DNA of 64,000 nucleotides from Pseudomonadota bacterium (lineage in GTDB: Bacteria; Desulfobacterota; Desulfobulbia; Desulfobulbales; SURF-16). A program made the position numbers and the translations under genes. Shown here in pieces: positions 22,582 through 41,281 of the stretch. The notes under the pieces are model-generated. The model searched no databases and had not been told where the DNA came from. It saw only the letters and a program-made list of their open reading frames with translations. The stretch covers positions 1,478 through 65,477 of the forward strand of contig JAHIVT010000091.1 of NCBI GenBank assembly GCA_018816555.1. Reading direction: 5' to 3'. How positions within the stretch are numbered: the first letter of the stretch is position 1; every line of letters begins with the position of its first letter.

Positions 22582-23597
22582 TTGATAAAAACCTTTTTGT
22601 AATCCTTCAGGTTTTCCAGGGCAATGCCGCTGCCCATGGCAATAGCCAGCAGCGGATCCTGGGTCAGGTGACAGGGAATTTTTGTTGTCTCTTCTATGAG
22701 GGTATTTAAGCCGCGCAGCAGTGAACCGCCACCGGCCATATAAATACCATCTTCATAAATATCCGTCACCAGTTCGGTGGGAGTTTTGTCCAGGGCCCTT
22801 CGCACTGAATCGACGATGGCATTTACCGGCTCCTGCATGGCAATTCTTATTTCCTGGGGCGTTAAGGTAACCTCCTTCGGAGTGCTGGTGATGGCGTTTT
22901 TGCCAATAAGGGTATAAGGTTCCAGTGTTGGGATATCGATGGCCGACCCGGCTGCTATCTTGCACTTTTCAGCGGTGTTTTCACCTATATAAATCTTATG
23001 ATTGTTAAAGAGATGACGGATGATCGCGTCATTGAGTTCGTCTCCTGCCACCCGCAATGATTCACAATAGGCCACAGACGACATGGTAATGACGGCAACC
23101 TCCGATGTGCCGCCCCCGATGTCTATGATCATCCTTCCCTTGTTCTGGAAAACATCAAGTCCTGAGCCGATGGCGGCGGCCATCGGTTCTTCAATAAGAT
23201 ACACCTTGCCGCAACCCACCTGTTCCGCTGCCTCAATAACCGCCTTTTTTTCTACCTGGGTTATGCCGGTGGGTACACAGATAACCACTGACGGCTTAAA
23301 AAAACGGCTCATTCTCTGAATTTTCAGAAAAAAACTTCTTATCATGGCCTGGGTGATGACAAAATCGGCTATCACACCATCTTTCAATGGTCGAATGGCG
23401 CTGATATGCTGGGGTGTTCTTCCCAGATATTTTTTTGCCGCCGCTCCCACAGCCAGAATTTCTTTTGTATAGGTATTATAAGCCACCACCGAAGGCTCAT
23501 TCAGCACTATACCAGATCCCTTTAAAAAGATTAGGGTGTTGGCTGTGCCGAGATCCATTGCCATGTTTTTTGAAAACAACGCGGGAAATATACTCAT
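22578..23597 (-). CDS. mreB: Rod shape-determining protein MreB
   Basis: Actin-fold motifs DLGTANT, EPMAAAIG and DIGGGTSE. 339 aa. Confidence 0.93.
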   Translation of the reverse strand: MSIFPALFSKNMAMDLGTANTLIFLKGSGIVLNEPSVVAYNTYTKEILAVGAAAKKYLGRTPQHISAIRPLKDGVIADFVITQAMIRSFFLKIQRMSRFFKPSVVICVPTGITQVEKKAVIEAAEQVGCGKVYLIEEPMAAAIGSGLDVFQNKGRMIIDIGGGTSEVAVITMSSVAYCESLRVAGDELNDAIIRHLFNNHKIYIGENTAEKCKIAAGSAIDIPTLEPYTLIGKNAITSTPKEVTLTPQEIRIAMQEPVNAIVDSVRRALDKTPTELVTDIYEDGIYMAGGGSLLRGLNTLIEETTKIPCHLTQDPLLAIAMGSGIALENLKDYKKVFIN

Positions 23598-24535
23598 TTT
23601 TTGTTAAGATATTCCTTAAAGAAAAGGTTGCTGAGAAGAGTCATGGTCTTTTTTTCTTTGGCAATCCACTTTTCATTGGCTTTTTTTACAAAAGCCAATG
23701 CACCTGCCTTTTTATTTTTTTTGGAAATAAGCGGCAGACACAAAAAATTTGTTACATTTTCAAAAGGTTCCTCTTTATTAACAATAAAGGATTTTTCGCT
23801 TCTGCTTAATTTTTCTAAAAAGAGCTCTTTTTTATTTTTTAATACCCAACCCATCAAACCGTATTGATCAAAATAATCATACGATAACTCTTTATAAATA
23901 CTTTTATTATTTATTTTGCAGGTAAAATATACAATTTTCTCTTCATAAACAAAAACAACCGCTTCCAGATAAATTATTGCAACCAGTAACTCTAAAAATT
24001 CCTTGGCAAATTCATTCTTGTCCTTGGTATGGACAATTATTTCATTGGCATTGAGTGATAAAGTCAAAAGATTGTCCAATATATTTTTTTCATTTATCTC
24101 TTTTTCTGCATTGATTATTGAGACCAAAACCTGAGCCATCTGCTTCAAAATTTTTTCCTTTTCTTCGGTGAAAACATAGCTTTTTTTGCTGTCAACACAG
24201 AGCACCCCATGATTTTCAGGCAAGGGGATGGCTACCAACGATTTTATATCTTCATCCTTTTCATAAAATTTCAGCGTGGTTGCATCTCTTTTATCGAAAT
24301 AACTGGCCAGTACCGATTTCTGTTCCCTGAAAACCCAACCAATAATACCTTCTCCGTTCAGCACCTTACAGTCCTTTTTAATATTCCGGCTGAGTGAATG
24401 ATAATAATAAAGAATTACCCCCTCGGCATCACTGTCATCAGCTAAAAAAAGACTGGTTGTATACGACTCCATGGTGTTGGAAATCAGTTCGATAAATTCG
24501 TATATCCGGGGCATTGCTTTCATAGGAAAAGACAC
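23594..24535 (-). CDS. Tandem GAF-like domain protein (function unknown)
   Basis: 313 aa and strongly AT-rich. Both halves show the GAF pattern (GEGIIGWV...LVAIPL..., then GLMGWV...FLCLPL...). Overlaps the mreB start by 4 nt, suggesting an operon. Confidence 0.6.
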   Translation of the reverse strand: MSFPMKAMPRIYEFIELISNTMESYTTSLFLADDSDAEGVILYYYHSLSRNIKKDCKVLNGEGIIGWVFREQKSVLASYFDKRDATTLKFYEKDEDIKSLVAIPLPENHGVLCVDSKKSYVFTEEKEKILKQMAQVLVSIINAEKEINEKNILDNLLTLSLNANEIIVHTKDKNEFAKEFLELLVAIIYLEAVVFVYEEKIVYFTCKINNKSIYKELSYDYFDQYGLMGWVLKNKKELFLEKLSRSEKSFIVNKEEPFENVTNFLCLPLISKKNKKAGALAFVKKANEKWIAKEKKTMTLLSNLFFKEYLNKK

Positions 24536-24939
24536 TCTAAAAATTAAAAGATTAACTGTCTAATTTTATTATTATTTTTTATGTATTGGTACAAATATGT
24601 TGAGCATACTATTATTATTGAATTTTTCTCGTTTTTAAACTATAGTTTTGACACGTAACATTTTGTTTTTCAGAGTAAATTATTAGGTTAACCGACACTT
24701 TTTTGGGTAAGGTGTTTATTTTGTTTTGATAACATGTTGAAAACTTTTTTCCCTTATTTTTTTCACCTTTTTTCAAAACTCTATTTTTATTAAAATAAAT
24801 AATAAAATTAGATCTTTACGTTAGTTTCTAACATTATAACAGATTTAATAATAATAGAATAAATTTTAATATATATCTTATTTTTTATACTTCCCCGGTT
24901 AAAAAACATCTCCGTCAGCCAAACAAAAAAGGATTTACC

Positions 24940-26070
24940 ATGTCTCTTATTCTTAATATCGCCAGAGAAGATTTTATATATGCTCTTTCCTCCATGCAGA
25001 ATGTTACTGGAAAACCAGGTACGATTGCTATTTTGGGAAATGTTCTTCTTCGCAGTGCTAACGATTCGCTTGAACTGACAGGGACAGACCTGGAAGTCGG
25101 TATCCGACAGATAATACCGGCAGAGATACTTTCCCAGGGATCCATCACCCTGCCTTCAAAAAAACTTTTTGAAATAGTGAGGGAATCCAACTCAGCGCAT
25201 ATTTATATCGAGGAGATAGAAAATAACTGGGTAAAAATAAAGGCGGATTCAAGTGATTACAATCTGGCAGGAATGGCGAGTGATGAATTCCCCTCTTTTC
25301 CTGAACACAAAGAAGAATCCCTTATCGAAATAGATGCCGAGAATATAAAAGATCTTATTGAAAAAACGATTTTTTCCGTCGCCTTGGACACGGAAAGTAA
25401 TTTTACCCTGACAGGAATCCTGGTAGAAAAAGAAATAAAGGAAGATAAAAGATATCTGCGTATGGTATCCTCTGACGGTCACCGACTCTCTCTGATGAAA
25501 AAAGAGGTGAAAGGTGATATTTCTCTGTTTAATCTTGATAAAACCACCATTATTCCCAGAAAAGGGGTCCAGGAAATAAAAAAATTCTGTGAACACCATG
25601 AAACCCTTTTTATTGGATTTGAAGAAAAACAAGTAGTTATCAAGGGCGATCACGCCATTCTCATCATCCGTCTCATGAACGGTGATTTTCCTGATTTCCG
25701 CAATCTTCTGCAGATAATCAACAAAGAAAAATTCATAGAAATCAATAGACTCGTTCTGCTGAATGCCATGCGGCGCATGAATCTTTTTACCGAAGACAGA
25801 TTCAATGTCGTCAAATGCCATATTGAAGATAATGAAATAAAATTAAGTTCCCAGAGTATGGATTTAGGAAATGCCCAGGAAGTTCATCCTGTCAAGTACA
25901 CGGGAGATTCAATAAAACTCGGATTTAACGGCAAATACTTCATTGATACCCTGCAGGTTATGACATGTGAAGAAGTCAAACTTTTTATTGAGGGGAAAGA
26001 CAGACCTTGTCTTGTCTACTCTGAAAATGAACCTGATTTTATCAGCATTATTATGCCCATGGAAATTTGA
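24940..26070 (+). CDS. dnaN: DNA polymerase III beta sliding clamp
   Basis: 376 aa, the length of a three-domain clamp. Family-typical N-terminus and C-terminal ...IIMPMEI ending. Followed by gyrB. Confidence 0.92.
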   Translation: MSLILNIAREDFIYALSSMQNVTGKPGTIAILGNVLLRSANDSLELTGTDLEVGIRQIIPAEILSQGSITLPSKKLFEIVRESNSAHIYIEEIENNWVKIKADSSDYNLAGMASDEFPSFPEHKEESLIEIDAENIKDLIEKTIFSVALDTESNFTLTGILVEKEIKEDKRYLRMVSSDGHRLSLMKKEVKGDISLFNLDKTTIIPRKGVQEIKKFCEHHETLFIGFEEKQVVIKGDHAILIIRLMNGDFPDFRNLLQIINKEKFIEINRLVLLNAMRRMNLFTEDRFNVVKCHIEDNEIKLSSQSMDLGNAQEVHPVKYTGDSIKLGFNGKYFIDTLQVMTCEEVKLFIEGKDRPCLVYSENEPDFISIIMPMEI

Positions 26071-26197
26071 TTATTCATACCTTCCCATGCGGTGAATCAT
26101 GAAAAACTCCGGATAAACCGGAGTAAAAAGTTTAATAAACCAGTTTAAAAGTATGTATCCTTTGAATTTTTTTATTATTTCAACGGATTACACGTAA

Positions 26198-28618
<2,421 letters not shown>

Positions 28619-28806
28619 TGGTTTTCAGGCAATTTCACCAGACATCGCCGGGTATAAGCTTATTCGTCAAAGAAGCGCTTTTATATCAGGCAAGAGGCTC
28701 AATATTAAATAAAAAAGATTTTTTGCGCTTGAAGTGTGCAATTTGTATCAATGGGTAAGGGAAACACTTGGAGCTTCAATACTAATATTTTTGTAAAGCG
28801 ATATTT

Positions 28807-31299
28807 ATGACTGAAAACGAGCAAGTTTTATCACCGACCATTTCCATAGAAAAAGAGCTGAAAAAATCCTATCTCGATTATGCCATGAGCGTCATCATAG
28901 GAAGGGCCCTGCCTGATGTACGGGACGGGCTCAAACCCGTTCATCGCCGCTCTCTTTTTGCCATGCGGGAACTGAGCAATTATCATAACCGCCCCTATCT
29001 GAAATCAGCCAGAATCGTCGGTGATATCATCGGTAAATTTCACCCCCATGGTGATACGGCTGCCTACGATACCATTGTCAGGATGGCCCAGGATTTTTCC
29101 ATGCGTTATCCCCTGGTGGACGGCCAGGGAAACTTTGGTTCCGTTGATGGTGATTCCCCGGCGGCCATGCGTTATACCGAGGCCAGGATGACCAAGTTGG
29201 ATCAGGAAATAATTGCTGATCTGGAAAAAGAAACGGTTGATTTTATCCCGAACTACGATAATTCCTTGGCTGAACCGGTAGTCTTTCCGACCAAAATACC
29301 CAACCTGCTGACAAATGGCTCTTCCGGTATAGCCGTCGGTATGGCGACCAATATCCCGCCGCATAATCTCAATGAGATTATGGATGGGATCATTGCCATG
29401 ATAGATGACCCGCATATTACGGTGAATGGCCTGATGGAGCATATTACCGGGCCGGATTTTCCCACCGGCGGTTTTATCTGCGGCAGGGCCGGCATACGGG
29501 AGGCCTATGAAACCGGACGCGGCTCTGTTTTAATGCGGGCGAGAAGCCATATAGAAAAAAGCAAAAAGATAAATCGCGAATCCATTATTATTGATGAAAT
29601 TCCCTATCAGCAGAACAAGGCAAGACTTGTGGAGAAAATTGCCTTGTTGATCAAGGAAAAAAAGATTGAATCAATTGGCGAGATACGTGATGAGTCAGAC
29701 CGCCACGGCATGCGCATCGTTCTTGAGTTGAAAAAAGATGAGTTTGCCGATGTGGTGCTCAATCAGCTCTACAAGATGACCCCGCTGCAGAAGAGCTTCG
29801 GCATCATATTCTTGAGTATTGTCAATTCCCGGCCGGAAGTTCTTAACCTCAAACAGATGCTGGAGCACTTTATCCAGCACAGAAAAACTGTGGTTTACCG
29901 GCGTACGGATTTTGATCTGAAAAAAGCCGAGGCCAGGGCCCATGTACTGGAAGGACTGACAGTAGCCATCAACAACATGGATGAGGTCGTGGCCCTTATC
30001 CGGGCATCGGCAAATCCGTCGGAAGCCCGCTTGGGACTCATGGAGAGGTTTAATCTCTCCGAGATACAGGCCCAGTCCATCCTTGATATGCGGCTGCAGA
30101 AACTGACAGGGCTGGAACGGGAAAAAATTATCAGCGAACTTAACGAACTGCTGGAAAAAATAGCAGTGTATAAACAAATTTTAACTGATGAAACCCTTGT
30201 CATGAAGATTATCCGGGATGAGTCTCTGGAAATCAAACAACTCTATGGAGATGAACGGCGGACAGAGATCATTGACGCCCCGGATGAGATTCTGCCGGAA
30301 GACATGATCCAGACGGAAGACATGGTGGTAACCGTCACCCATGGCGGCTATATCAAGCGAAATTCCGTTGATCTGTACCGTTCCCAGCGGCGCGGCGGCA
30401 AGGGCATCAAGGGTATCACCGCGGTTGAAGAGGATTTTGTCAACAATCTCTATCTTGCCTCAACCCATGATACCTTCCTATTTTTCACCAACCATGGCAA
30501 AGTTTTCTGGCGTAAGGTTTATGAAATTCCCCTGGCCAGCCGTATTGCCCGAGGCAAGGCCATCGTCAATCTGCTTGAGCTGTCCGAAAATGAGCAGGTG
30601 GCCGCCATTCTGCCGGTTACGAGCTTTGATTGCACCGACAGAGAATGCTATATTCTGATGGTCACCAAAAAGGGTGTGGTGAAGAAAACGGTTATTTCCG
30701 AATTCGCCAGACCGATGCGCAAAGGAAAAATAGCGCTGACCATCAGGGAAGACGATGAAATTATCAGTGCCGCCATTACCAACGGCACAAGTCAGATTCT
30801 TCTGGTATCCCACAAGGGCATGGCTATTCGTTTTAATGAAGATGACGTGAGGAGCATGGGCAGAACAGCCGCCGGCGTGCGCGGCATCAAGCTGGCCAAA
30901 AATGACCATGTGGTGGCCGCAGTGGTCATTGACAGCGATGATTCCATTCTGGTGGTCACGGAAAACGGCTTTGGTAAGAGAAGTCCGGTGGAAGAGTACA
31001 GGCTGATAAAAAGAGGCGGCAAGGGTGTCTATGCCATCAAGCCCAGTGAACGAAACGGCAACATCATCGGCGCCTGCCAGATTACCAAGGAAGATGAGAT
31101 CATGCTCATCACCGATCAGGGCAAAATCATCAGGATGGATATGAGCGCAGTCAGGGTTATCGGTCGAGCCACCCAGGGTGTGACGCTGTTTAATCTGGAA
31201 TCGGGTGAAAAGGTGGTGGCCATGGATATGGTCCCTGCCACCGATGCCGTGGATGAAGATGATGAAGATGGAGAGGAAACGGAAGATCAGAGTTCATGA
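28807..31299 (+). CDS. gyrA: DNA gyrase subunit A
   Basis: HPHGDTAAYDT, catalytic-Tyr segment AAMRYTEARM, C-terminal beta-pinwheel repeats and an acidic tail. 830 aa. Confidence 0.97.
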   Translation: MTENEQVLSPTISIEKELKKSYLDYAMSVIIGRALPDVRDGLKPVHRRSLFAMRELSNYHNRPYLKSARIVGDIIGKFHPHGDTAAYDTIVRMAQDFSMRYPLVDGQGNFGSVDGDSPAAMRYTEARMTKLDQEIIADLEKETVDFIPNYDNSLAEPVVFPTKIPNLLTNGSSGIAVGMATNIPPHNLNEIMDGIIAMIDDPHITVNGLMEHITGPDFPTGGFICGRAGIREAYETGRGSVLMRARSHIEKSKKINRESIIIDEIPYQQNKARLVEKIALLIKEKKIESIGEIRDESDRHGMRIVLELKKDEFADVVLNQLYKMTPLQKSFGIIFLSIVNSRPEVLNLKQMLEHFIQHRKTVVYRRTDFDLKKAEARAHVLEGLTVAINNMDEVVALIRASANPSEARLGLMERFNLSEIQAQSILDMRLQKLTGLEREKIISELNELLEKIAVYKQILTDETLVMKIIRDESLEIKQLYGDERRTEIIDAPDEILPEDMIQTEDMVVTVTHGGYIKRNSVDLYRSQRRGGKGIKGITAVEEDFVNNLYLASTHDTFLFFTNHGKVFWRKVYEIPLASRIARGKAIVNLLELSENEQVAAILPVTSFDCTDRECYILMVTKKGVVKKTVISEFARPMRKGKIALTIREDDEIISAAITNGTSQILLVSHKGMAIRFNEDDVRSMGRTAAGVRGIKLAKNDHVVAAVVIDSDDSILVVTENGFGKRSPVEEYRLIKRGGKGVYAIKPSERNGNIIGACQITKEDEIMLITDQGKIIRMDMSAVRVIGRATQGVTLFNLESGEKVVAMDMVPATDAVDEDDEDGEETEDQSS

Positions 31300-35348: not shown

Positions 35349-35711
35349 TCACGACCCCTTTGTTTCCGCCCAGCGTCTAATCTCCTTTACTATCCGCTCA
35401 GGATCAGGAGCGTTGCTCAGCATTATTTTTTTGAATAATTCGTAGTACCTGATTTGAATAAAATCAAATTGGCAGCCAATCCCGTCAGCATTAGAATGAA
35501 TGACCCTGCAGGTAAATTCAACCTGCCCCAACAGTGTAAGACTAATATATTCATCAGGCAGCACTAGCGGTATATGATCAAGCTTGATAAAAGCGCCCGC
35601 AAAACTTAAATTCAGTGTATGACCTCCCAGCACCAATTCACGACGAGGTAGCTCTAATTTCACCTTAAAATTCAGAGGAAGTCGAAGATGTTTTCTACAC
35701 TCTTTTCTCAT
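35349..35711 (-). CDS. PilZ domain protein
   Basis: 120 aa with RxxxR (RKHLR) and (D/N)xSxxG (NLSFAG) c-di-GMP-binding motifs at the expected spacing. AT-rich. Confidence 0.75.
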   Translation of the reverse strand: MRKECRKHLRLPLNFKVKLELPRRELVLGGHTLNLSFAGAFIKLDHIPLVLPDEYISLTLLGQVEFTCRVIHSNADGIGCQFDFIQIRYYELFKKIMLSNAPDPERIVKEIRRWAETKGS

Positions 35712-35799
35712 AATTTATTACTATACAATTTAGGGAGATAGTTTGTTACGTACAGTAGTAATATAACGTTTTGAACTGTTTGGAATATTCAGATATTTG

Positions 35800-35823
35800 A
35801 TGTGGCAATCTCAAGGGCTGAAC
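35800..35823. repeat. 24-nt perfect direct repeat, copy 1 (ATGTGGCAATCTCAAGGGCTGAAC)
   Basis: Identical to 39519-39542. Homology extends leftward (56 of 76 positions by hand count) and stops abruptly at ...GAAC. Confidence 0.9.
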
Positions 35824-35903
35824 GTCTTGGTCGGTGGCGCGCCTGGTGCTTGCCCGCCTAGGCCACCCGACCTCTTCGCGTCCACTGTACTAAATTGTTA
35901 GCC
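35817..35903 (-). repeat. attC-like imperfect palindrome downstream of the cyclase-like gene
   Basis: On the gene strand: GGCTAAC ... GTCGGGTGGC-loop-GCCACCGAC ... GTTCAGC. The stem has one bulged base. The spacing of the left core is asymmetric. Confidence 0.4.
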
Positions 35904-35912
35904 GATTATTTA

Positions 35913-36938
35913 TTATTTCCCGAAAAAGTGCGGCAAATCCATATCCAACTTAAACCTTAGTGATAAAAAAGGATAATCAGTAATTTTTGACTTTTTATTC
36001 ACATCTTCAAGTAATGGCGTTGAAGAGTTCAATGAATTAAGTACCTGTTTTTCAAGTTCGTCGTTCTCTGAGTGTTTAAAATTTTCATACTCCTGAAATA
36101 ATTGAAGGTTTGATAAAACAGAGGTGTTTAGTCGTCTGAATGTGTGACGTTTTTTCATAATGTCCATTTCTATGGAGGAAGAAACAGACCAAGTGCTGCG
36201 AGGAGGTATAGTCTCTTTGTGTCGGTATTCGTATGGCGTTACAAGTGACGACTTAGTATTAACGAATTTAGAAAACCCTAAGATCGCATAGGCTGGCTGG
36301 CAGTATGAAATGGCCACGGCAATATCATCTTCGACATAAAGGTGATTTCCTTTTATTCCAGCTGAACTCCCTTTTGTTTCAGCTTCGTATGCAGTTGAAA
36401 TCGAAAAGTTTGCAGAAAAAAAATCGTCTTTTCCTTTTCTTGTATTAAAGCATTTTCGTAATCCTGATGCGACAACAGTGCGACACCCTGGGAAGCTTTT
36501 CTCAAACTCACATGCATTAATGTATTTATGTATTCTTGCAACAAGTCCAAGGAACTTAGCTACATTACCACCAGCGTCAGCTACAGTTCCAGAAGGGTCA
36601 GACTTCCCATCCTGTTTAGATATTTCTCGCAATTGCTCAATTGAAAAACCACCACTTAAACGAGTTTGCCCTATTGGGGGGGCAAGATTCTCAATATCGA
36701 TTCCAAGAAAAAGTGCATCATTAAAACGGAAGTATTCAAGCCCGTTCGGGTATAGTTGAGGGTACTCGTTTTTTTCATTCTCAAATAGCTGAATGGCTTT
36801 CTCCAAAGAGTTAAGCCTTTCTATTGCTTGGCCGCCAGTTTCCGTTCTTATGTCACAATTTGCAACCATAATATGGTTTGAGAACCCAAGGAGATCTATC
36901 TGAGCTGCGCAAGACCATCGTACATCTGGATTAATCAC
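35913..36938 (-). CDS. Orphan protein with nucleotidyl-cyclase/GGDEF-like palm motifs and a ~120-aa C-terminal extension
   Basis: 341 aa. The ordered motifs AAQIDLLGFSN (first metal Asp), FRFNDALFLGI (second Asp), helix AKFLGLVARIHKYI, CRTVVASGL and FFSANFSISTAYEAE mimic the class III cyclase / GGDEF / mCpol fold. Assigned by eye only. Confidence 0.5.
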   Translation of the reverse strand: MINPDVRWSCAAQIDLLGFSNHIMVANCDIRTETGGQAIERLNSLEKAIQLFENEKNEYPQLYPNGLEYFRFNDALFLGIDIENLAPPIGQTRLSGGFSIEQLREISKQDGKSDPSGTVADAGGNVAKFLGLVARIHKYINACEFEKSFPGCRTVVASGLRKCFNTRKGKDDFFSANFSISTAYEAETKGSSAGIKGNHLYVEDDIAVAISYCQPAYAILGFSKFVNTKSSLVTPYEYRHKETIPPRSTWSVSSSIEMDIMKKRHTFRRLNTSVLSNLQLFQEYENFKHSENDELEKQVLNSLNSSTPLLEDVNKKSKITDYPFLSLRFKLDMDLPHFFGK

Positions 36939-36951
36939 TTTTTTTCTCCTA

Positions 36952-37050
36952 GGCTAACATGAAAATCAGCAGTTTATCCGGTGCATTTTCTGGTTGAAGT
37001 TTAGTATCTTGGCCCTGGGATTCCTCTTCCGTCTTCCGTCGCAGTTATTT
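36952..37050 (-). repeat. attC-like element between the Mrr-nuclease gene and the cyclase-like gene
   Basis: On the gene strand: AAATAAC (overlapping the TAA stop) ... CTTCAAC-CAGAAAATG-loop-ATTTTCAT-GTTAGCC. The terminal GTTAGCC is the exact complement of GGCTAAC at the far end of the next gene. Confidence 0.4.
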
Positions 37051-37932
37051 ACTTGAAATTGCATTAAAATAATCAAGTATAGAGTTGTGGTGTATTAATT
37101 CGACGCCGTTCGCCAACGCCAGATCACAGGCCGACCTCGTAAAAGACGAATTTGATATAACAACAGCATAATCGGTTTTGTAATACCCTCTTGCTGCAAT
37201 GATTTCTTGCACTGCTTTGTTGCCAACAGGGGTATTGTAATATTTTGTTTGTATGGCGACCGACACACCATCATTGCGTGTAGCCATGACATCAAGCCCT
37301 TGGTCTCCACTTGCTTTAGATACTTCAGCGTTCCATCCATTGGCGTAATCATTTATAGTTTTTGCCACAGCATGTTCATATTCAACTCCATTGTTTACTA
37401 ACTCAAATGAAAATGCATCTGTATTATCATTCTTAATGCGTTGGGTTAGTTCGTTATCTATGGAGTTAAACAATAAAGGGAATATGCCTTGATCGTAAAA
37501 TATCTGGCTGTTGTACATACGCCAAAAATCATCTTTATCTTTCTCGCTAACATGCGTGATACGCCATAGGGAATGTTTTAATTTTTCGTTTAACAACGGA
37601 ACTGCTATATTTGTAACAACTTTCGACAAATTGTTATTAAACTTGTCTCTGTTTTCAATCCCGTATCCATCCGTTTGGACGCCTATATGATAGTCTTTCT
37701 TTAATTGAGCATAGTGCCTATCTATTGTCATGGTGGCTATGGCCATGATGTAATTTGATATAAAAATATTATCCCATTTTAGATTTTCTTTATCGTTAAC
37801 GATTCTGTTGACTCCTTCATCGATTACTGCATGTTCAATTGATCCTTCAAAATCGTTTGAATATATGTTAGCAAGCTCAGCCAACAATTCTTGCCGATTG
37901 TTTTTTTTGTTGCCAAAGAATGAAAAGACCAT
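37045..37932 (-). CDS. Protein with unknown N-terminal domain fused to an Mrr-type (PD-(D/E)xK) restriction endonuclease domain
   Basis: 295 aa. The C-terminal ~115 aa match the Mrr_cat pattern (GVEYEHAVA...GDQGLDV...VAIQTKYY...VQEI....GYY..DYAVVISNSSFT..A..LA..NGVELI). The N-terminal ~180 aa have no recognised motif. Confidence 0.7.
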   Translation of the reverse strand: MVFSFFGNKKNNRQELLAELANIYSNDFEGSIEHAVIDEGVNRIVNDKENLKWDNIFISNYIMAIATMTIDRHYAQLKKDYHIGVQTDGYGIENRDKFNNNLSKVVTNIAVPLLNEKLKHSLWRITHVSEKDKDDFWRMYNSQIFYDQGIFPLLFNSIDNELTQRIKNDNTDAFSFELVNNGVEYEHAVAKTINDYANGWNAEVSKASGDQGLDVMATRNDGVSVAIQTKYYNTPVGNKAVQEIIAARGYYKTDYAVVISNSSFTRSACDLALANGVELIHHNSILDYFNAISSK

Positions 37933-37968: not shown

Positions 37969-38026
37969 GAATAACGTGGCCTTCAGTAGCGAGCGAAGCG
38001 TGTCGGACTGAAAGGCATGGTTGGGC
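37969..38026 (-). repeat. attC-like 58-nt imperfect palindrome
   Basis: On the gene strand: GCCCAAC-CATG-CCTTTCAGT-loop-ACTGAAGG-CCAC-GTTATTC. The left core matches RYYYAAC exactly, and the stem has bulged bases. Confidence 0.5.
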
Positions 38027-38084: not shown

Positions 38085-38318
38085 TTAATCTTTGTCTTGC
38101 GAGTTCTTGCCAGGAAATAAATTTGGGAAATCAAGCACTATATAGATCAAGGCCGGAACTAAAAGAAATAACCACCCGAGCGTTCGTAACAAATTCGGGT
38201 ATTCCGGAGAGCTTTCTAATAATAGATAGTCAGGGGCGTATATCCTATCCAGTATACTCAATATTGCACCTATGATGGTTAAAGTAGCCGCGATTAATTT
38301 TAGATCCCTTTTGCTCAC
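38085..38318 (-). CDS. Small two-TM membrane protein (hypothetical)
   Basis: 77 aa with two hydrophobic helices (LIAATLTIIGAILSIL and LGWLFLLVPALIYIVL). Sits in the cassette-like context. Confidence 0.5.
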   Translation of the reverse strand: MSKRDLKLIAATLTIIGAILSILDRIYAPDYLLLESSPEYPNLLRTLGWLFLLVPALIYIVLDFPNLFPGKNSQDKD

Positions 38319-38415: not shown

Positions 38416-39126
38416 TCATTTAATTGGTGCTGTGCAAAATTCAATAAAACCTTTTCCTAAAGGAGAAACTCTGTTTCCAAGTAGGTGTAAACCTTGACCG
38501 GATGTCATTGTGTTGAAAATAGTTTTATCTGTGCTTATTAAGCCATAGCGGTACAGATCGCCAAAAGCTGATTCAATCACTTCTAACTTGATTCCAGGTA
38601 TAGCAATCGGGAAGAAGTCTGAAAATCCACCTCTAATTTTTTCTTGGGGAATGTTGTTTTCGTTAAGATAGTCACTGGGTTTTGCCATGAATTTCAACAT
38701 TCTTACATGTAGAACAGATAATGTATTGACTAAATTAAGAAAATATTGCTTTTCATCCTCCGACAGGTTCGAACCGATAGCAGAGTTGATTAAAATCCCT
38801 CGGAAAGCCTCAATTTTTTCTCTTTGATAATTATCAGCCACTCCTCTGAAGCAATTCTCAAATATGTATGCGAATTCATCAGTTTGAAGCTGCGTTTCGT
38901 TTACCTGATCTTGGAGTTTATCCAGGTCTTGAGCAATCTTTTCGGCGAACTGTTCAAGGCGTTGGAATTTTGAAGATGGTATATAATCGCTCATGAGCGA
39001 TGCAATTCCACCGCAGAACGGAGCCGTTGCTAACCCTGCTTTGATTATATTTACAAGGTGTTCAGTCGCACCCGATGCAGCAGCTTTTTTAATTTTCTGA
39101 ATCAGAGCATTCGTTTCTTCTGGCAT
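38416..39126 (-). CDS. Hypothetical protein (orphan, mainly helical)
   Basis: 236-aa ORF with plausible composition. N-terminal Gly/Ala-rich amphipathic segment (GLATAPFCGGIASLMS). No catalytic motif recognised. Confidence 0.6.
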   Translation of the reverse strand: MPEETNALIQKIKKAAASGATEHLVNIIKAGLATAPFCGGIASLMSDYIPSSKFQRLEQFAEKIAQDLDKLQDQVNETQLQTDEFAYIFENCFRGVADNYQREKIEAFRGILINSAIGSNLSEDEKQYFLNLVNTLSVLHVRMLKFMAKPSDYLNENNIPQEKIRGGFSDFFPIAIPGIKLEVIESAFGDLYRYGLISTDKTIFNTMTSGQGLHLLGNRVSPLGKGFIEFCTAPIK

Positions 39127-39220: not shown

Positions 39221-39518
39221 GCCTCATACCCTTATCATTAATATAGGAGTTTTTACTCAGATATTCCCTTGTTAACGAAAAGAAGTAGCACTTTTGAGAG
39301 GAGGTGACAAGCAGGAATAACTGCAAATGATCCGGTTTGTTTTTCTTCAGCTTTTTTGCTGTCTAAAATGTATCTTTTACGACCCACCTTAGTTGAGATT
39401 TGTCATGGCAAGGAATACGCCTGACAACATTACCGCAAGTTAACATAATTCCTGATTCTTCGAGGGACGAACAGTAGATCTAATAATCTGAGAATAGTTT
39501 GATTTTTTCAGATGTTCT

Positions 39519-39542
39519 ATGTGGCAATCTCAAGGGCTGAAC
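39519..39542. repeat. 24-nt perfect direct repeat, copy 2
   Basis: Identical to 35800-35823, lying 3719 bp away. Confidence 0.9.
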
Positions 39543-39588
39543 AAGCCGCATAAGCAGCGCTGCCAGGAAGCTTGTGCGGTTGTTGGGG
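39536..39588 (-). repeat. attC-like 53-nt imperfect palindrome
   Basis: On the gene strand: CCCCAAC-AACCGCACAAGC-14 nt loop-GCTTATGCGG(C)TT-GTTCAGC. A 15-bp stem with one extrahelical base and one G-U pair. Confidence 0.45.
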
Positions 39589-39620
39589 GGATTTTATAAT
39601 TTAATGGACATCCCTATCCT

Positions 39621-39650
39621 CCTGAATCCGTGATACCTCACGGATTCAGG
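39621..39650. other. Perfect 13-bp stem hairpin (CCTGAATCCGTGA-TACC-TCACGGATTCAGG)
   Basis: Seen directly. Lies 50 nt beyond the stop of the PEP-CTERM gene. No clear U-tract follows on the gene strand. Confidence 0.5.
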
Positions 39651-39699
39651 ATATTTTGATGAAGCTTTATTAATTCCTCATTGAAGCCAAGTCCAAATA

Positions 39700-40431: not shown

Positions 40432-41281
40432 AAAATCCTCCTTTTTAATTAAAGTTAAAATTTGGTTCACTCTATATGGTGTTTACCTCCTTAACAGGCT
40501 TTCGAAAAAGTCTGACATTTACTATTTTTTATGGAAAGGATACTAAGTGGATGGTCGTAACTGTCTGAATTTACGTAAAGCAGAAACTGAGAACTGGTCG
40601 TTTTTATTGCTGAAAATCGTTTTTCAACATCCTGTTAACAAAGTCAGTAGGCCGGTTGGCGCCGCGCGCAGCGGGCGCCACCTAATTATTATCTCGCGCA
40701 TGGTTTTTCCGCCGATTCCCTTCGCTGGTTATGGGCTGTTTGCGATAAAACGTAGGCGATTTTATCATTATCTCGCAAGCCAAGCTTGATAACGATAAAT
40801 ATTCAATATTAAACGTGAAATAATTTCCCGGTGACCATGCTGCCGCTAGGATTCCGTTTCCCCCTAAAAACAGAAAAGCCGAGCTACCTCAATATTCAAG
40901 GCAACCCGGCTAACTTGTTAAAGTTCCGTGGCTTTCTGTCCCCACTTCACAATGGGTTTAGCTTTATCTATTACTCCATCCTAACAGACCCATACAAAGT
41001 AATATTTGTTTTGTAAATAGGGTAATTTGTCGCACCTTTTGACAGTTAAAAATGGCAAGAGGTTCAGATTGGCAATCTTTATCTTGGAAAGAGCACGACA
41101 ACTTGAGATGTTTCCTGAATTTCTTAAGATTGCCGCAGAGTATACGTAACAAAAAAAATCCGGTGGGACCGATTCATGCCCTCCCATGGATAACACTCAC
41201 CAGAGACAACATATTTCCAAACTATACGTATTCCAGGCTAATATCGAATGAATGTTGCAAAATATTGCAACATCGAAGGGA

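Follow-up and report, generated by a model that had tools for sequence, protein, structure and literature searches.

The locus and its Mrr-type nuclease

The window, meaning the whole stretch of 64,000 nt that was analysed, carries two neighbouring genes on one strand with a gap of 106 nt between them. Both open reading frames are as outlined in the preliminary description:

35913..36938, minus strand: ORF of 341 aa from the ORF list, with a GTG start and a GGAG ribosome-binding site 8 nt upstream
37045..37932, minus strand: ORF of 295 aa, an Mrr nuclease that carries a helical domain at its N-terminus

Two domains were distinguished in the 295-aa protein, and the C-terminal one is indeed the clear Mrr-type nuclease that had been proposed at first reading:

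37072..37383, minus strand: Mrr_cat PD-(D/E)xK nuclease domain, residues 184-287 (Pfam PF04471, E 2.6e-17)
37429..37905, minus strand: all-alpha N-terminal domain, residues 10-168, predicted as six helices (pLDDT >90) with no other elements

The Mrr_cat match scored 63.4 bits against a cut-off of 21, and the residues D214, Q228 and K230 (Q228-x-K230) are invariant in the 31 sequences of the nuclease alignment. Foldseek matched this domain to MspJI, AF1548 and NucS/EndoMS, and the PADLOC matches of the protein were the nuclease part of ZorD and mREase_IV. The likeness to Mrr and type IV restriction endonucleases (PF04471; MspJI, AspBHI) lies in the C-terminal PD-(D/E)xK domain with its D...Q-x-K catalytic residues, whereas the N-terminus is a predicted helical bundle, where E. 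coli Mrr has a winged helix and MspJI an SRA-like domain.

As also noted at the outset, the N-terminal part shows no CARF, SAVED or cNMP-binding domain, its predicted fold being a different one, an all-helical bundle. It contains a conserved D-x-YG...W motif that is common to many small Mrr-family proteins, Y90 is at least 90% conserved, and relatives of this Mrr_cat fusion have an N-terminal TM helix. For the N-terminal domain itself the Foldseek search found no PDB fold match; the low-rmsd matches of the protein covered about 80-150 columns and were to nuclease-type domains, and the Cdn1, Card1 and VC1899 entries aligned to the model at an rmsd of 15-30 Å. The helical domain would most likely control or target DNA cleavage, with the protein serving as a type IV restriction enzyme or an abortive nuclease.

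Fold and conservation of the 341-aa protein

No match to the 341-aa protein was found in Pfam, NCBIfam, PADLOC or PHROG, and every one of its 98 close homologues is labelled 'hypothetical'. The protein is a member of a conserved family that is unnamed in any library and that comprises 267 clusters at 50% identity (E<=1e-3) in a representative library of 1.84 billion proteins. The family is rare and patchy, with members in 8 of 185,579 species genomes and in at least five phyla. The following features were assigned to the protein:

36126..36926, minus strand: predicted class III nucleotidyl-cyclase (CHD) fold domain, residues 5-271, with two inserted loops (AF2 and Foldseek)
36879..36899, minus strand: IDLLGFS, residues 14-20, with candidates for the first metal Asp (D15) and the phosphate-binding G-F-S loop
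36702..36728, minus strand: RFNDALFLG, residues 71-79, with D74 in the hairpin of strands 2 and 3 as candidate for the second metal Asp
36459..36485, minus strand: CRTVVASGL, residues 152-160, R-x5-G strand with candidate phosphate-binding Arg R153
36378..36422, minus strand: FFSANFSISTAYEAE, residues 173-187, N177 as helix N-cap and candidate counterpart of the cyclase Asn
35916..36125, minus strand: helical C-terminal extension, residues 272-341, with helices at 272-338 in the AF2 model and a length that varies in the family

The preliminary description had seen in this protein the palm common to class III cyclases, GGDEF enzymes and minimal CRISPR polymerases. The AF2 model (pLDDT 88.5, pTM 0.89) predicted a palm fold, not a non-palm one, and the Foldseek search of the PDB pointed to class III cyclases. 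The best 41 matches were all class III-type cyclases, Pycsar cyclases among them, with a best E-value of 1e-5, a probability of 1.0 for nearly all and TM scores of 0.55-0.63 on the target. The leading entries were 3et6, 1wc4, 2w01 and 4ni2, and the Pycsar cyclases 8jsf and 8jsz were also in the list. The E-values of class III-type cyclases were better than those of all other palm enzymes by 3-4 orders of magnitude. Panoptes mCpol (OptS, 9MNR/9PD0), the Cas10 palm and GGDEF belong to the same broad palm superfamily, and mCpol is likewise a minimal stand-alone generator of a nucleotide signal; yet these enzymes matched the model much more weakly, at E 0.02-0.5, compared with 1e-5 for the class III cyclases. 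In addition, the GGDD/GGDEF hairpin motif of these enzymes is replaced by R-F-N-D in the 341-aa protein, which also has no conserved effector partner. In the BFVD structure search the top match was a CHASE2-type sensor protein, with a diguanylate cyclase also among the top matches. The palm assignment was thus refined to a class III cyclase fold, of which the catalytic Arg is missing.

The class III palm fold predicted for the protein is visible through structure prediction, and no sequence-level homology is detectable. Guanylate_cyc gave no match at E<=10 in 80 family members or in 20 distant or long relatives, and no other Pfam family matched any of them. A PDB sequence profile search with the family found no cyclase, and hhalign against five PDB cyclase sequences gave probabilities below 1%. 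The only stretch that hhalign aligned with a cyclase was IDLLGFS, placed over sDLRGFT, and the match was not significant.

The four motifs quoted in the preliminary description are present and are not due to chance, since they hold the most conserved positions of the family and lie at the metal- and phosphate-binding places of the fold. IDLLGFS is at least 90% conserved and sits at the C-terminal end of strand 6-16 in the model. D74, placed between strands 68-72 and 75-82, is the sole fully invariant column among the 40 most diverse family members. In an alignment of 80 sequences the invariant columns are N73, D74, P150, G151 and N177, and those conserved at 90% or more are D15-S20, R71, R153, T154, G159, D172, S175 and S179. 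The CRTVVASGL motif corresponds to strand 152-162 of the model and reappears as PG[ACG]R[TS] in distant short relatives; N177 precedes helix 178-193, and LQANxAFxxAY is kept by distant relatives. D15, at the end of strand 1, and D74 make up a candidate two-metal site in the model. N177 is a candidate equivalent of the cyclase Asn by position only: the residue four places further on is S, T or A in all members examined, and Arg is absent there.

The tail of 120 aa that had been left unassigned proved to be shorter, about 70 aa (272-341), as residues 200-271 still look like cyclase domain, with its last strands and a helix. This is based on the predicted secondary structure and on Foldseek alignments covering 270-285 columns. 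In longer family members (434-459 aa) the extra C-terminal region had no Pfam domain, and no fused effector domain was recognised.

Compared with class III cyclases (PF00211; CyaC 1WC0, Cya2 2W01, soluble guanylate cyclase 3ET6/4NI2), the predicted fold and the order of strands and helices are the same. Both have one Asp where strand 1 ends, within a D-x-x-G-F-[ST] loop, and another in the hairpin of strands 2 and 3, together with the R-x5-G strand and an Asn opening the next helix. On the other hand, the 341-aa protein has no Arg four residues after this Asn and no detectable sequence homology; its two Asp residues are 59 residues apart (about 44 in class III cyclases), and it has inserted loops at 84-118 and 229-248, the 70-aa helical C-terminal extension and additional invariant residues (R31, R41, E55, R135, H137). 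It also differs in having no attached sensor or transmembrane domain. As both acidic positions, the G-F-S loop and the R-x5-G strand are kept across very divergent members, a metal- and NTP-dependent chemistry can be argued for the family. We infer that the D-L-L-G-F-S loop and R153 may bind an NTP, that D15 and D74 may coordinate two metal ions, and that nucleotidyl chemistry of the cyclase kind could follow, as cyclisation or as transfer. By analogy with class III cyclases it would probably act as a homodimer.

Cassette boundaries and gene neighbourhoods

As a cassette we considered a single ORF with a 5′ R′ box (GTTRRRY) and, on its 3′ side, an attC opening with a complementary R″ box (RYYYAAC). 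Four elements around the two genes relate to this organisation:

36952..36958, minus strand: R′ box GTTAGCC, 5′ limit of the cassette with the 341-aa gene, 20 nt ahead of its start codon
35817..35903, minus strand: attC-like site that ends the 341-aa cassette, with R″ GGCTAAC at 35897-35903 and R′ GTTCAGC at 35817-35823
36952..36999, minus strand: weak hairpin (CTTCAAC...GTTAGCC) in the intergenic gap, putatively a degenerate attC belonging to the Mrr cassette
37969..38026, minus strand: attC site on the upstream side of the Mrr cassette, whose 5′ limit it forms, with R″ GCCCAAC and R′ GTTATTC

The 341-aa gene is, as in an integron cassette, a single ORF between complementary boxes: R′ GTTAGCC is the exact reverse complement of R″ GGCTAAC after its stop codon. 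Such an exact R′/R″ complement around a single gene was seen at 7 of 45 loci, with three different box sequences, vs. 0.6% of shuffles. The GTTAGCCC-RBS-start junction recurs after unrelated upstream DNA at L020, L032, L035, L039 and L067, and GGCTAAC with the first half of attC after the stop is common to homologous cassettes. In the attC of the 341-aa cassette the inner 11-bp stem folds and the outer arms pair poorly. The hairpin at 37969-38026, formed by CCTTTCAGT and ACTGAAGG, has a folding energy of -8.3 kcal/mol (z -2.0), and another attC-type site, at 39536-39588, folds with z about -2. In the hairpin between the genes (36952-36999) AAC pairs with GTT and the inner stem is imperfect; with -3.8 to -4.4 kcal/mol and z -1.2 to -1.4 it is not significant alone. 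Our home-made attC scans (forced AAC/GTT pairing plus MFE, and arm-duplex energy) were nonspecific, calling sites in GC-rich coding DNA as often as in the island, and a strict search for clean attC hairpins across loci yielded 8 heterogeneous sites, too few for a covariance model.

The island that contains these cassettes has a GC content of 38-41%, compared with 50-56% in the flanks, a low value that marks it as foreign in origin. A tblastn search with three tyrosine recombinases found no integrase across the 64 kb window, so the island resembles an attC cluster lacking an integrase. The ORFs at its borders had no Pfam match. Promoter and terminator scans gave counts no higher than in shuffled sequence, and no convincing terminator was found between the two genes.

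Gene neighbourhoods were compared at 60 loci with a 341-aa homologue and over about 40 independent contexts. A search of these 60 loci with the Mrr profile gave a match in L059 only, and an Mrr neighbour of any kind was present in 2 of the approximately 40 independent contexts. No recurrent partner family was found among 111 neighbours of about 38 non-redundant loci, where IstB (4) and integrase (3) were the commonest families. At the nearest independent relatives, L066 (75% identity) and L067 (72%), the match to the window is confined to the coding sequence; the neighbours differ and include no Mrr protein. Conversely, four full-length homologues of the nuclease (P0100, P0103, P0105 and P0106) have no cyclase-like neighbour. 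P0106 and P0083 agree in the length of their longest contig, 14,556 nt, but a co-occurrence hinted at by this was dropped, as the contigs are different ones. In L059, a distant homologue of 31% identity has a protein of about 300 aa with a C-terminal Mrr_cat domain directly upstream; however, an attC lies between the two genes, and no similarity was detectable between the N-terminal domains of the window and L059 Mrr proteins.

Family members are found in low-GC or mobile surroundings, where integrases, IS elements and genes of the restriction and Abi types occur. The gene stands alone between clpB and rimK in two Flavobacterium species, with a duplicated hairpin of 37-46 nt on both sides. The family always moves as a one-gene mobile unit. 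A metallophosphoesterase was considered as a partner and set aside: it adjoins the gene in one AT-rich clade, with the repeated intergenic motif of that clade in between, it flips between the upstream and the downstream side, and other clade members have none. A 248-aa neighbour in L029/L030 was likewise set aside as a relative, having FFDILGFGS and NFSDS motifs, yet going undetected by the family profile (E<=1e-3).

The generator-effector pair that the preliminary description had put forward is therefore not borne out: the homologues almost never adjoin each other, occurring together at one other locus only (L059), a cassette boundary lies between the genes, and the N-terminal domain of the nuclease is all-alpha. 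Its own caveat of two independent cassettes was the correct reading, in view of the boundary boxes, the attC in L059 and the missing recurrent partner. As the 341-aa and 295-aa genes appear to lie in separate mobile cassettes and, L059 apart, were not found together elsewhere, they very probably do not form a signalling pair.

Interpretation of the locus

We favour as probable an arrangement of two independent single-gene integron-type cassettes, one for a cyclase-fold protein and one for a stand-alone Mrr endonuclease, with no partnership between them. They would be direct neighbours in a cassette cluster of low GC content, for which the window contains no integrase. The member of the unnamed family, with residues 5-271 in the predicted class III nucleotidyl-cyclase fold, would be encoded by cassette 1 (about 36957 to 35823) and would work with no dedicated partner beside it. 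The stand-alone Mrr-type PD-(D/E)xK endonuclease would be encoded by cassette 2 (about 37974 to 36958).

It is fairly unlikely, but deserves mention, that the 341-aa family is a conflict module needing only its own gene, a lone cyclase-fold enzyme spread as a solo cassette over at least five phyla. When triggered, such an enzyme would make a nucleotide signal or a toxic nucleotide, or drain the NTP pool, with no effector gene being required. Its routes of spread would be integron arrays, other cassette-like arrays and one-gene insertions. Any role in phage defence, like the product that the 341-aa protein may form, is something that we infer.

That the protein has a cyclase palm but is no cyclase appears unlikely. 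It would then bind NTPs as a sensor or pseudo-enzyme, or act in the manner of a nucleotidyltransferase or polymerase and form a product other than a 3′,5′-cyclic mononucleotide. The missing class III catalytic Arg points this way, as do the five additional invariant residues, which have no counterpart in cyclase motifs, the absence of profile-level similarity to cyclases and the weaker structural matches of the palm to mCpol and GGDEF enzymes. Against this, very divergent members retain both acidic positions as well as the G-F-S loop and R-x5-G, and the E-values favour class III-type cyclases over other palms.

We consider it very unlikely that the cyclase-fold gene belongs to ordinary host signalling and not to conflict, feeding, for example, a downstream PilZ protein. 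A PilZ gene (35349-35711) with intact RxxxR and NxSxxG motifs does lie 200 nt downstream, and a GGDEF protein follows the homologue in Desulfobacteraceae MAG loci. PilZ was nevertheless rejected as a conserved partner of the 341-aa gene, as it adjoins the homologue at no other locus, and the rare, patchy distribution, the mobile contexts and the cassette organisation also argue against this reading.

It is highly improbable that the locus is a new two-gene signalling defence system, in which a nucleotide signal from the 341-aa protein would be perceived by the helical domain of the Mrr nuclease: the adjacency on one strand with no convincing terminator in the 106-nt gap, the weak intergenic hairpin, which means that the genes may move and be transcribed together here, the upstream Mrr_cat protein in L059 and the generator-beside-effector layout that is the rule in Pycsar (PMC11224242) speak for it, but the scarcity of Mrr neighbours, the dissimilar N-terminal domains and the intervening attC in L059, the other neighbours of the 72-75% identity relatives, the four nuclease relatives without a cyclase, the all-alpha domain recurring in many small Mrr proteins with no cyclase neighbour and the lack of a low-rmsd PDB match for this domain (Cdn1, Card1 and VC1899 being as distant as given above) all weigh against it.

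Known systems with such a layout were compared as well. Pycsar is defined by a cyclase beside a cNMP-binding TIR or TM effector (PMC11224242). The cyclase fold of PycC (8JSF, 8JSZ, 6YII; PycTIR/PycTM effectors) appeared at Foldseek ranks 21, 35 and 39 for the 341-aa model, and small size and mobile or defence-type DNA are shared; however, canonical purine cyclases scored better than PycC. The 341-aa protein had no PADLOC Pycsar match, and no TIR or cNMP-binding family was among the commonest of the 111 neighbours. For a CBASS- or type III CRISPR-like pair, no SAVED, CARF or known sensor was found in the nuclease, and the pairing is absent in the homologues.

The proposed new signalling pair is thus not upheld, and a false lead is avoided. 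What stays, beside the two probable independent cassettes, is a conserved unnamed family of about 270 clusters at 50% identity with a cyclase fold revealed by structure prediction alone. This family is modestly interesting: should its members prove to be active enzymes, the superfamily of class III cyclases would gain a branch invisible to sequence profiles, and the question is raised of what role a cyclase moving alone, without a receptor gene, would have.

Single-gene defence modules, Mrr_cat fusions among them, have been described in integron cassettes (Darracq et al., bioRxiv 10.1101/2024.07.02.601686), such as Epona (Mrr_cat and TM) and Belisama (Abi-alpha-like). No cyclase-fold cassette is mentioned in that study, in which the word 'cyclase' occurs 0 times (bioRxiv 10.1101/2024.07.02.601686). 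By description, the organisation of those anti-phage cassettes, with one short gene per cassette and attC boundaries, is shared by the locus analysed here, whereas the window differs from those integrons in having no integrase. The locus would represent a non-Vibrio example of an integrase-less cassette cluster stocking nuclease-type and Abi-type single-gene modules. The island also carries an Abi_alpha-like protein of 236 aa; this protein and the Mrr_cat fusion, whose relatives have a TM helix, resemble the Belisama and Epona types, respectively, by description only.

Genomic setting and conservation of the 341-aa protein

The cyclase-fold gene and its nuclease neighbour are separated by 106 nt:

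35913-36938, minus strand, 341-aa ORF with a GTG start
37045-37932, minus strand, 295-aa ORF, Mrr_cat fusion

Both are housed in a low-GC island (~35.7-41.0 kb; GC 38-41% vs. 50-56% on either flank). Next to the island are selD and a PilZ gene at one edge and, at the opposite edge, a gene for a PHO4-family phosphate transporter. The opposite-strand ORFs at both genes are short and overlap the 341-aa and 295-aa ORFs.

The 341-aa protein gave zero matches in Pfam, NCBIfam, PADLOC and PHROGs. A search of a 5.8-billion-protein index returned 98 homologues (E down to 1e-33), each labelled 'hypothetical', and a profile search of 1.84 billion representatives gave 267 clusters at E<=1e-3, including shorter relatives (244-315 aa) that keep four motifs: DLLG[FY]G, ND[AGS], PG[ACG]R[TS] and LQANxAFxxAY. 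The protein represents a real, conserved family despite having no library name. The family is rare and patchy, occurring in 8 of 185,579 species genomes (Desulfobacteraceae, Bipolaricaulota, Thermotogae, two Flavobacterium species, other Bacteroidota and Balneolales). In the family alignment N73, D74, P150, G151 and N177 are invariant, and conservation is at least 90% at D15-S20, R71, R153, T154 and G159; over the 40 most diverse members, D74 alone is still invariant. The motifs singled out in the preliminary description coincide with these most conserved positions.

Members of the 60-75% clade (window 36936-36958; homologue loci L003, L020, L024-L033 and L067) start with TTG or GTG after GGAGGA-TGAATAA, and this conserved non-ATG start may keep translation low.

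Predicted folds of the two proteins

An AlphaFold2 model of the 341-aa protein, built on 80 sequences, was confident (pLDDT 88.5, pTM 0.89). In Foldseek comparison with the PDB, the top 41 matches were all class III-type cyclases, with guanylate and adenylate cyclases ranked first (best E 1e-5, probability 1.0, TM ~0.6 on the target) and the Pycsar pyrimidine cyclases 8JSF and 8JSZ among them, while mCpol (E 0.02) and GGDEF (E >0.2) fell far below; at the level of the model, the palm fold proposed earlier was borne out. The best match in a viral structure library was a CHASE2-type sensor protein. In the secondary structure of the model, strand 1 has D15 at its C-terminal end, the strand 2-3 hairpin contains D74, R153 begins the next long strand and N177 caps the following helix, which places these conserved residues at class III cyclase positions. 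For the comparison of residue positions with cyclase motifs we relied on established knowledge and aligned real cyclase sequences: LYVEDD is equivalent to the cyclase strand and helix at 'ILVSE', and the counterpart of the IxLFGKxYxFRxLN hairpin is 'vxlKGkxxpvxvyrl'. Because residues 200-271 are still part of the cyclase-fold domain, only ~70 residues (272-341, helical) make up a true extension; the unassigned tail described previously exists, but not at the 120 aa first assigned to it.

The likeness to class III cyclases is one of fold and not of sequence. No link between the family and cyclases was found by family-profile, PDB-sequence and distant-relative searches, hhalign gave a probability of <1% with a single local match setting IDLLGFS over the cyclase motif sDLRGFT, and the catalytic Arg present in cyclases four residues past the Asn is missing. 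Since the sequence-profile test failed and this Arg is missing, we file the family as a divergent new variant, not a member, of class III cyclases, although by its predicted fold it would work like one.

By definition, a Pycsar cyclase has a cNMP-binding TIR or TM effector next to it (PMC11224242). There is no such neighbour here, and a Pycsar identity was rejected.

The C-terminal half of the 295-aa protein is an Mrr_cat nuclease (E 2.6e-17) with D214, Q228 and K230 invariant in the Mrr nuclease alignment, and Foldseek aligns it with MspJI, AF1548 and NucS nuclease domains. Residues 10-168 are confidently predicted as a six-helix bundle. None of the low-rmsd PDB matches of the model extended past the nuclease-type domain, and Cdn1, Card1 and VC1899 entries appeared only at rmsd 15-30 Å. 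The helical region carries a D-x-YG...W motif common to many small Mrr-family proteins, several of which start in a transmembrane helix. Such an N-terminal helix is found in the nearest relative of the Mrr fusion (P0100, L062 222-1169; 55% identity) and in many more distant relatives, and is absent from the window copy and P0101.

Cassette boundaries and linkage of the two genes

GTTAGCC, 20 nt before the GTG start of the 341-aa gene, and GGCTAAC, 9 nt past its stop, are exact reverse complements, as for the R'/R'' boxes of an integron attC boundary. Such an exact 7-mer pair around the single family gene was present in 7 of 45 testable loci vs. 0.6% of shuffles, with three box sequences (GTTAGCC, GTTATGT and GTTAGGC). 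In L020, L032, L035, L039 and L067 the DNA ahead of the junction GTTAGCCC-GGAGGA-start consists of unrelated attC sites and genes. Past the stop codon, homologous cassettes have GGCTAAC and the initial half of the attC in common. The 5′ boundary of the Mrr gene is its own attC hairpin (37969-38026, z -2.0). The site between the two genes forms only a weak hairpin (z ~-1.3), so this boundary rests on R'/R'' logic and cross-locus comparison, not on folding. The exact R'/R'' pair and the junction after unrelated DNA uphold the earlier caveat that the genes may be independent cassettes. No integrase was found in the 64-kb window.

The preliminary description had proposed that the two proteins form a signalling pair. 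Among 60 loci with a 341-aa homologue, collected for a neighbour survey, the Mrr profile matched one, L059, where the protein encoded upstream carries Mrr_cat at its C terminus, its N-terminal domain has no similarity to that of the window, and a clear attC separates it from the homologue. Reciprocally, no cyclase-like neighbour stood beside four full-length relatives of the nuclease. The 111 neighbours from ~38 non-redundant loci contained only two recurring families, IS21 IstB (4) and tyrosine recombinase (3); they include housekeeping genes (urocanase, clpB, rimK, hisD) as well as restriction, Abi, DndB-like, HEPN and HNH genes. The two nearest relatives that are independent of the window (75% and 72% identity) are like it only in the CDS and have other neighbours; L068, identical in sequence to the window, was not counted as independent. 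Conserved linkage was found in neither direction, and a signalling pair is not supported.

Most likely, the 341-aa protein would bind an NTP and two metal ions and catalyse a reaction of cyclase type, with no partner gene dedicated to it. The Mrr protein would most likely be a stand-alone nuclease, controlled or targeted by its helical domain. Integron cassettes are known to stock defence modules of one gene each, Mrr_cat fusions and Abi-alpha-like proteins among them (bioRxiv 10.1101/2024.07.02.601686). The setting of both genes fits this use; a defence role for either would be putative.

The two copies of a 76-nt direct repeat (35748-35823 and 39467-39542; 74% identical) each start precisely at the R' box GTTCAGCCC of an attC-like site, and the 3.7 kb between them contain four genes (236 aa, 77 aa, Mrr and cyclase-fold). 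The core of the repeat, CTTGAGATTGCCACA, is found again, inverted, at the upstream edge of the island (41058-41078 and 41123-41154). The repeat could mark a multi-cassette unit or be a recombinase or regulator binding site.

One-gene units outside integrons and further observations

Outside integrons the family gene is still a one-gene unit. In Flavobacterium palustre (L015 7923-9073) and F. pokkalii (L017 7914-9075) the homologue lies between clpB and rimK. A 37-46-nt hairpin is repeated in direct orientation on its two sides, at a spacing of 1114-1116 nt, and the arrangement resembles the insertion of a single gene; the shorter L017 copy (309 aa) may be truncated. In an AT-rich clade (L025-L030, L036) copies of the 13-nt motif AATAATTYGGTAA stand after almost all genes in same-strand arrays, six of them in L029 (3419-12449), which suggests a cassette-like array whose repeat is unlike canonical attC boxes.

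Homologues within this AT-rich clade are 80-100% identical. Here a calcineurin-like metallophosphoesterase of 354 aa adjoins the cyclase-fold gene on either side (downstream in L028, L029, L030 and L036, upstream in L033/L034). Its copies are 62-100% identical between contigs and absent from other clade members; the adjacency could reflect shared ancestry or a cyclase-phosphodiesterase association. In Desulfobacteraceae MAG loci L003-L006 (8139-9137) the homologue and its attC-like site precede a gene for a GGDEF protein of 327-332 aa, in the vicinity of an IS91-type transposase and a tyrosine recombinase.

In the window, a 120-aa PilZ protein (35349-35711, minus strand) with intact c-di-GMP-binding motifs (RxxxR and NxSxxG) is encoded directly downstream of the cyclase-fold cassette, within the lower-GC zone; no other homologue locus has a PilZ neighbour. 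The 236-aa protein (38416-39126, minus strand) matches PHROG 26838 (E 4e-12) and, below the cut-off, Abi_alpha (E 0.004). A 77-aa hydrophobic protein (38085-38318, minus strand) comes after it with no clear attC between them, and the two genes may form a two-gene cassette of abortive-infection type. At 39620-39651 a perfect inverted repeat (14 bp, 4-nt loop) directly follows a gene for a 256-aa PEP-CTERM-like protein and is itself followed by a plus-strand T-rich tail. Finally, dnaN, gyrB and gyrA (24940-31299) are 5-10 kb away from the island, alongside a stretch of 31-39% GC (23000-25000) that may be a replication origin; the cassette cluster would therefore be origin-proximal.
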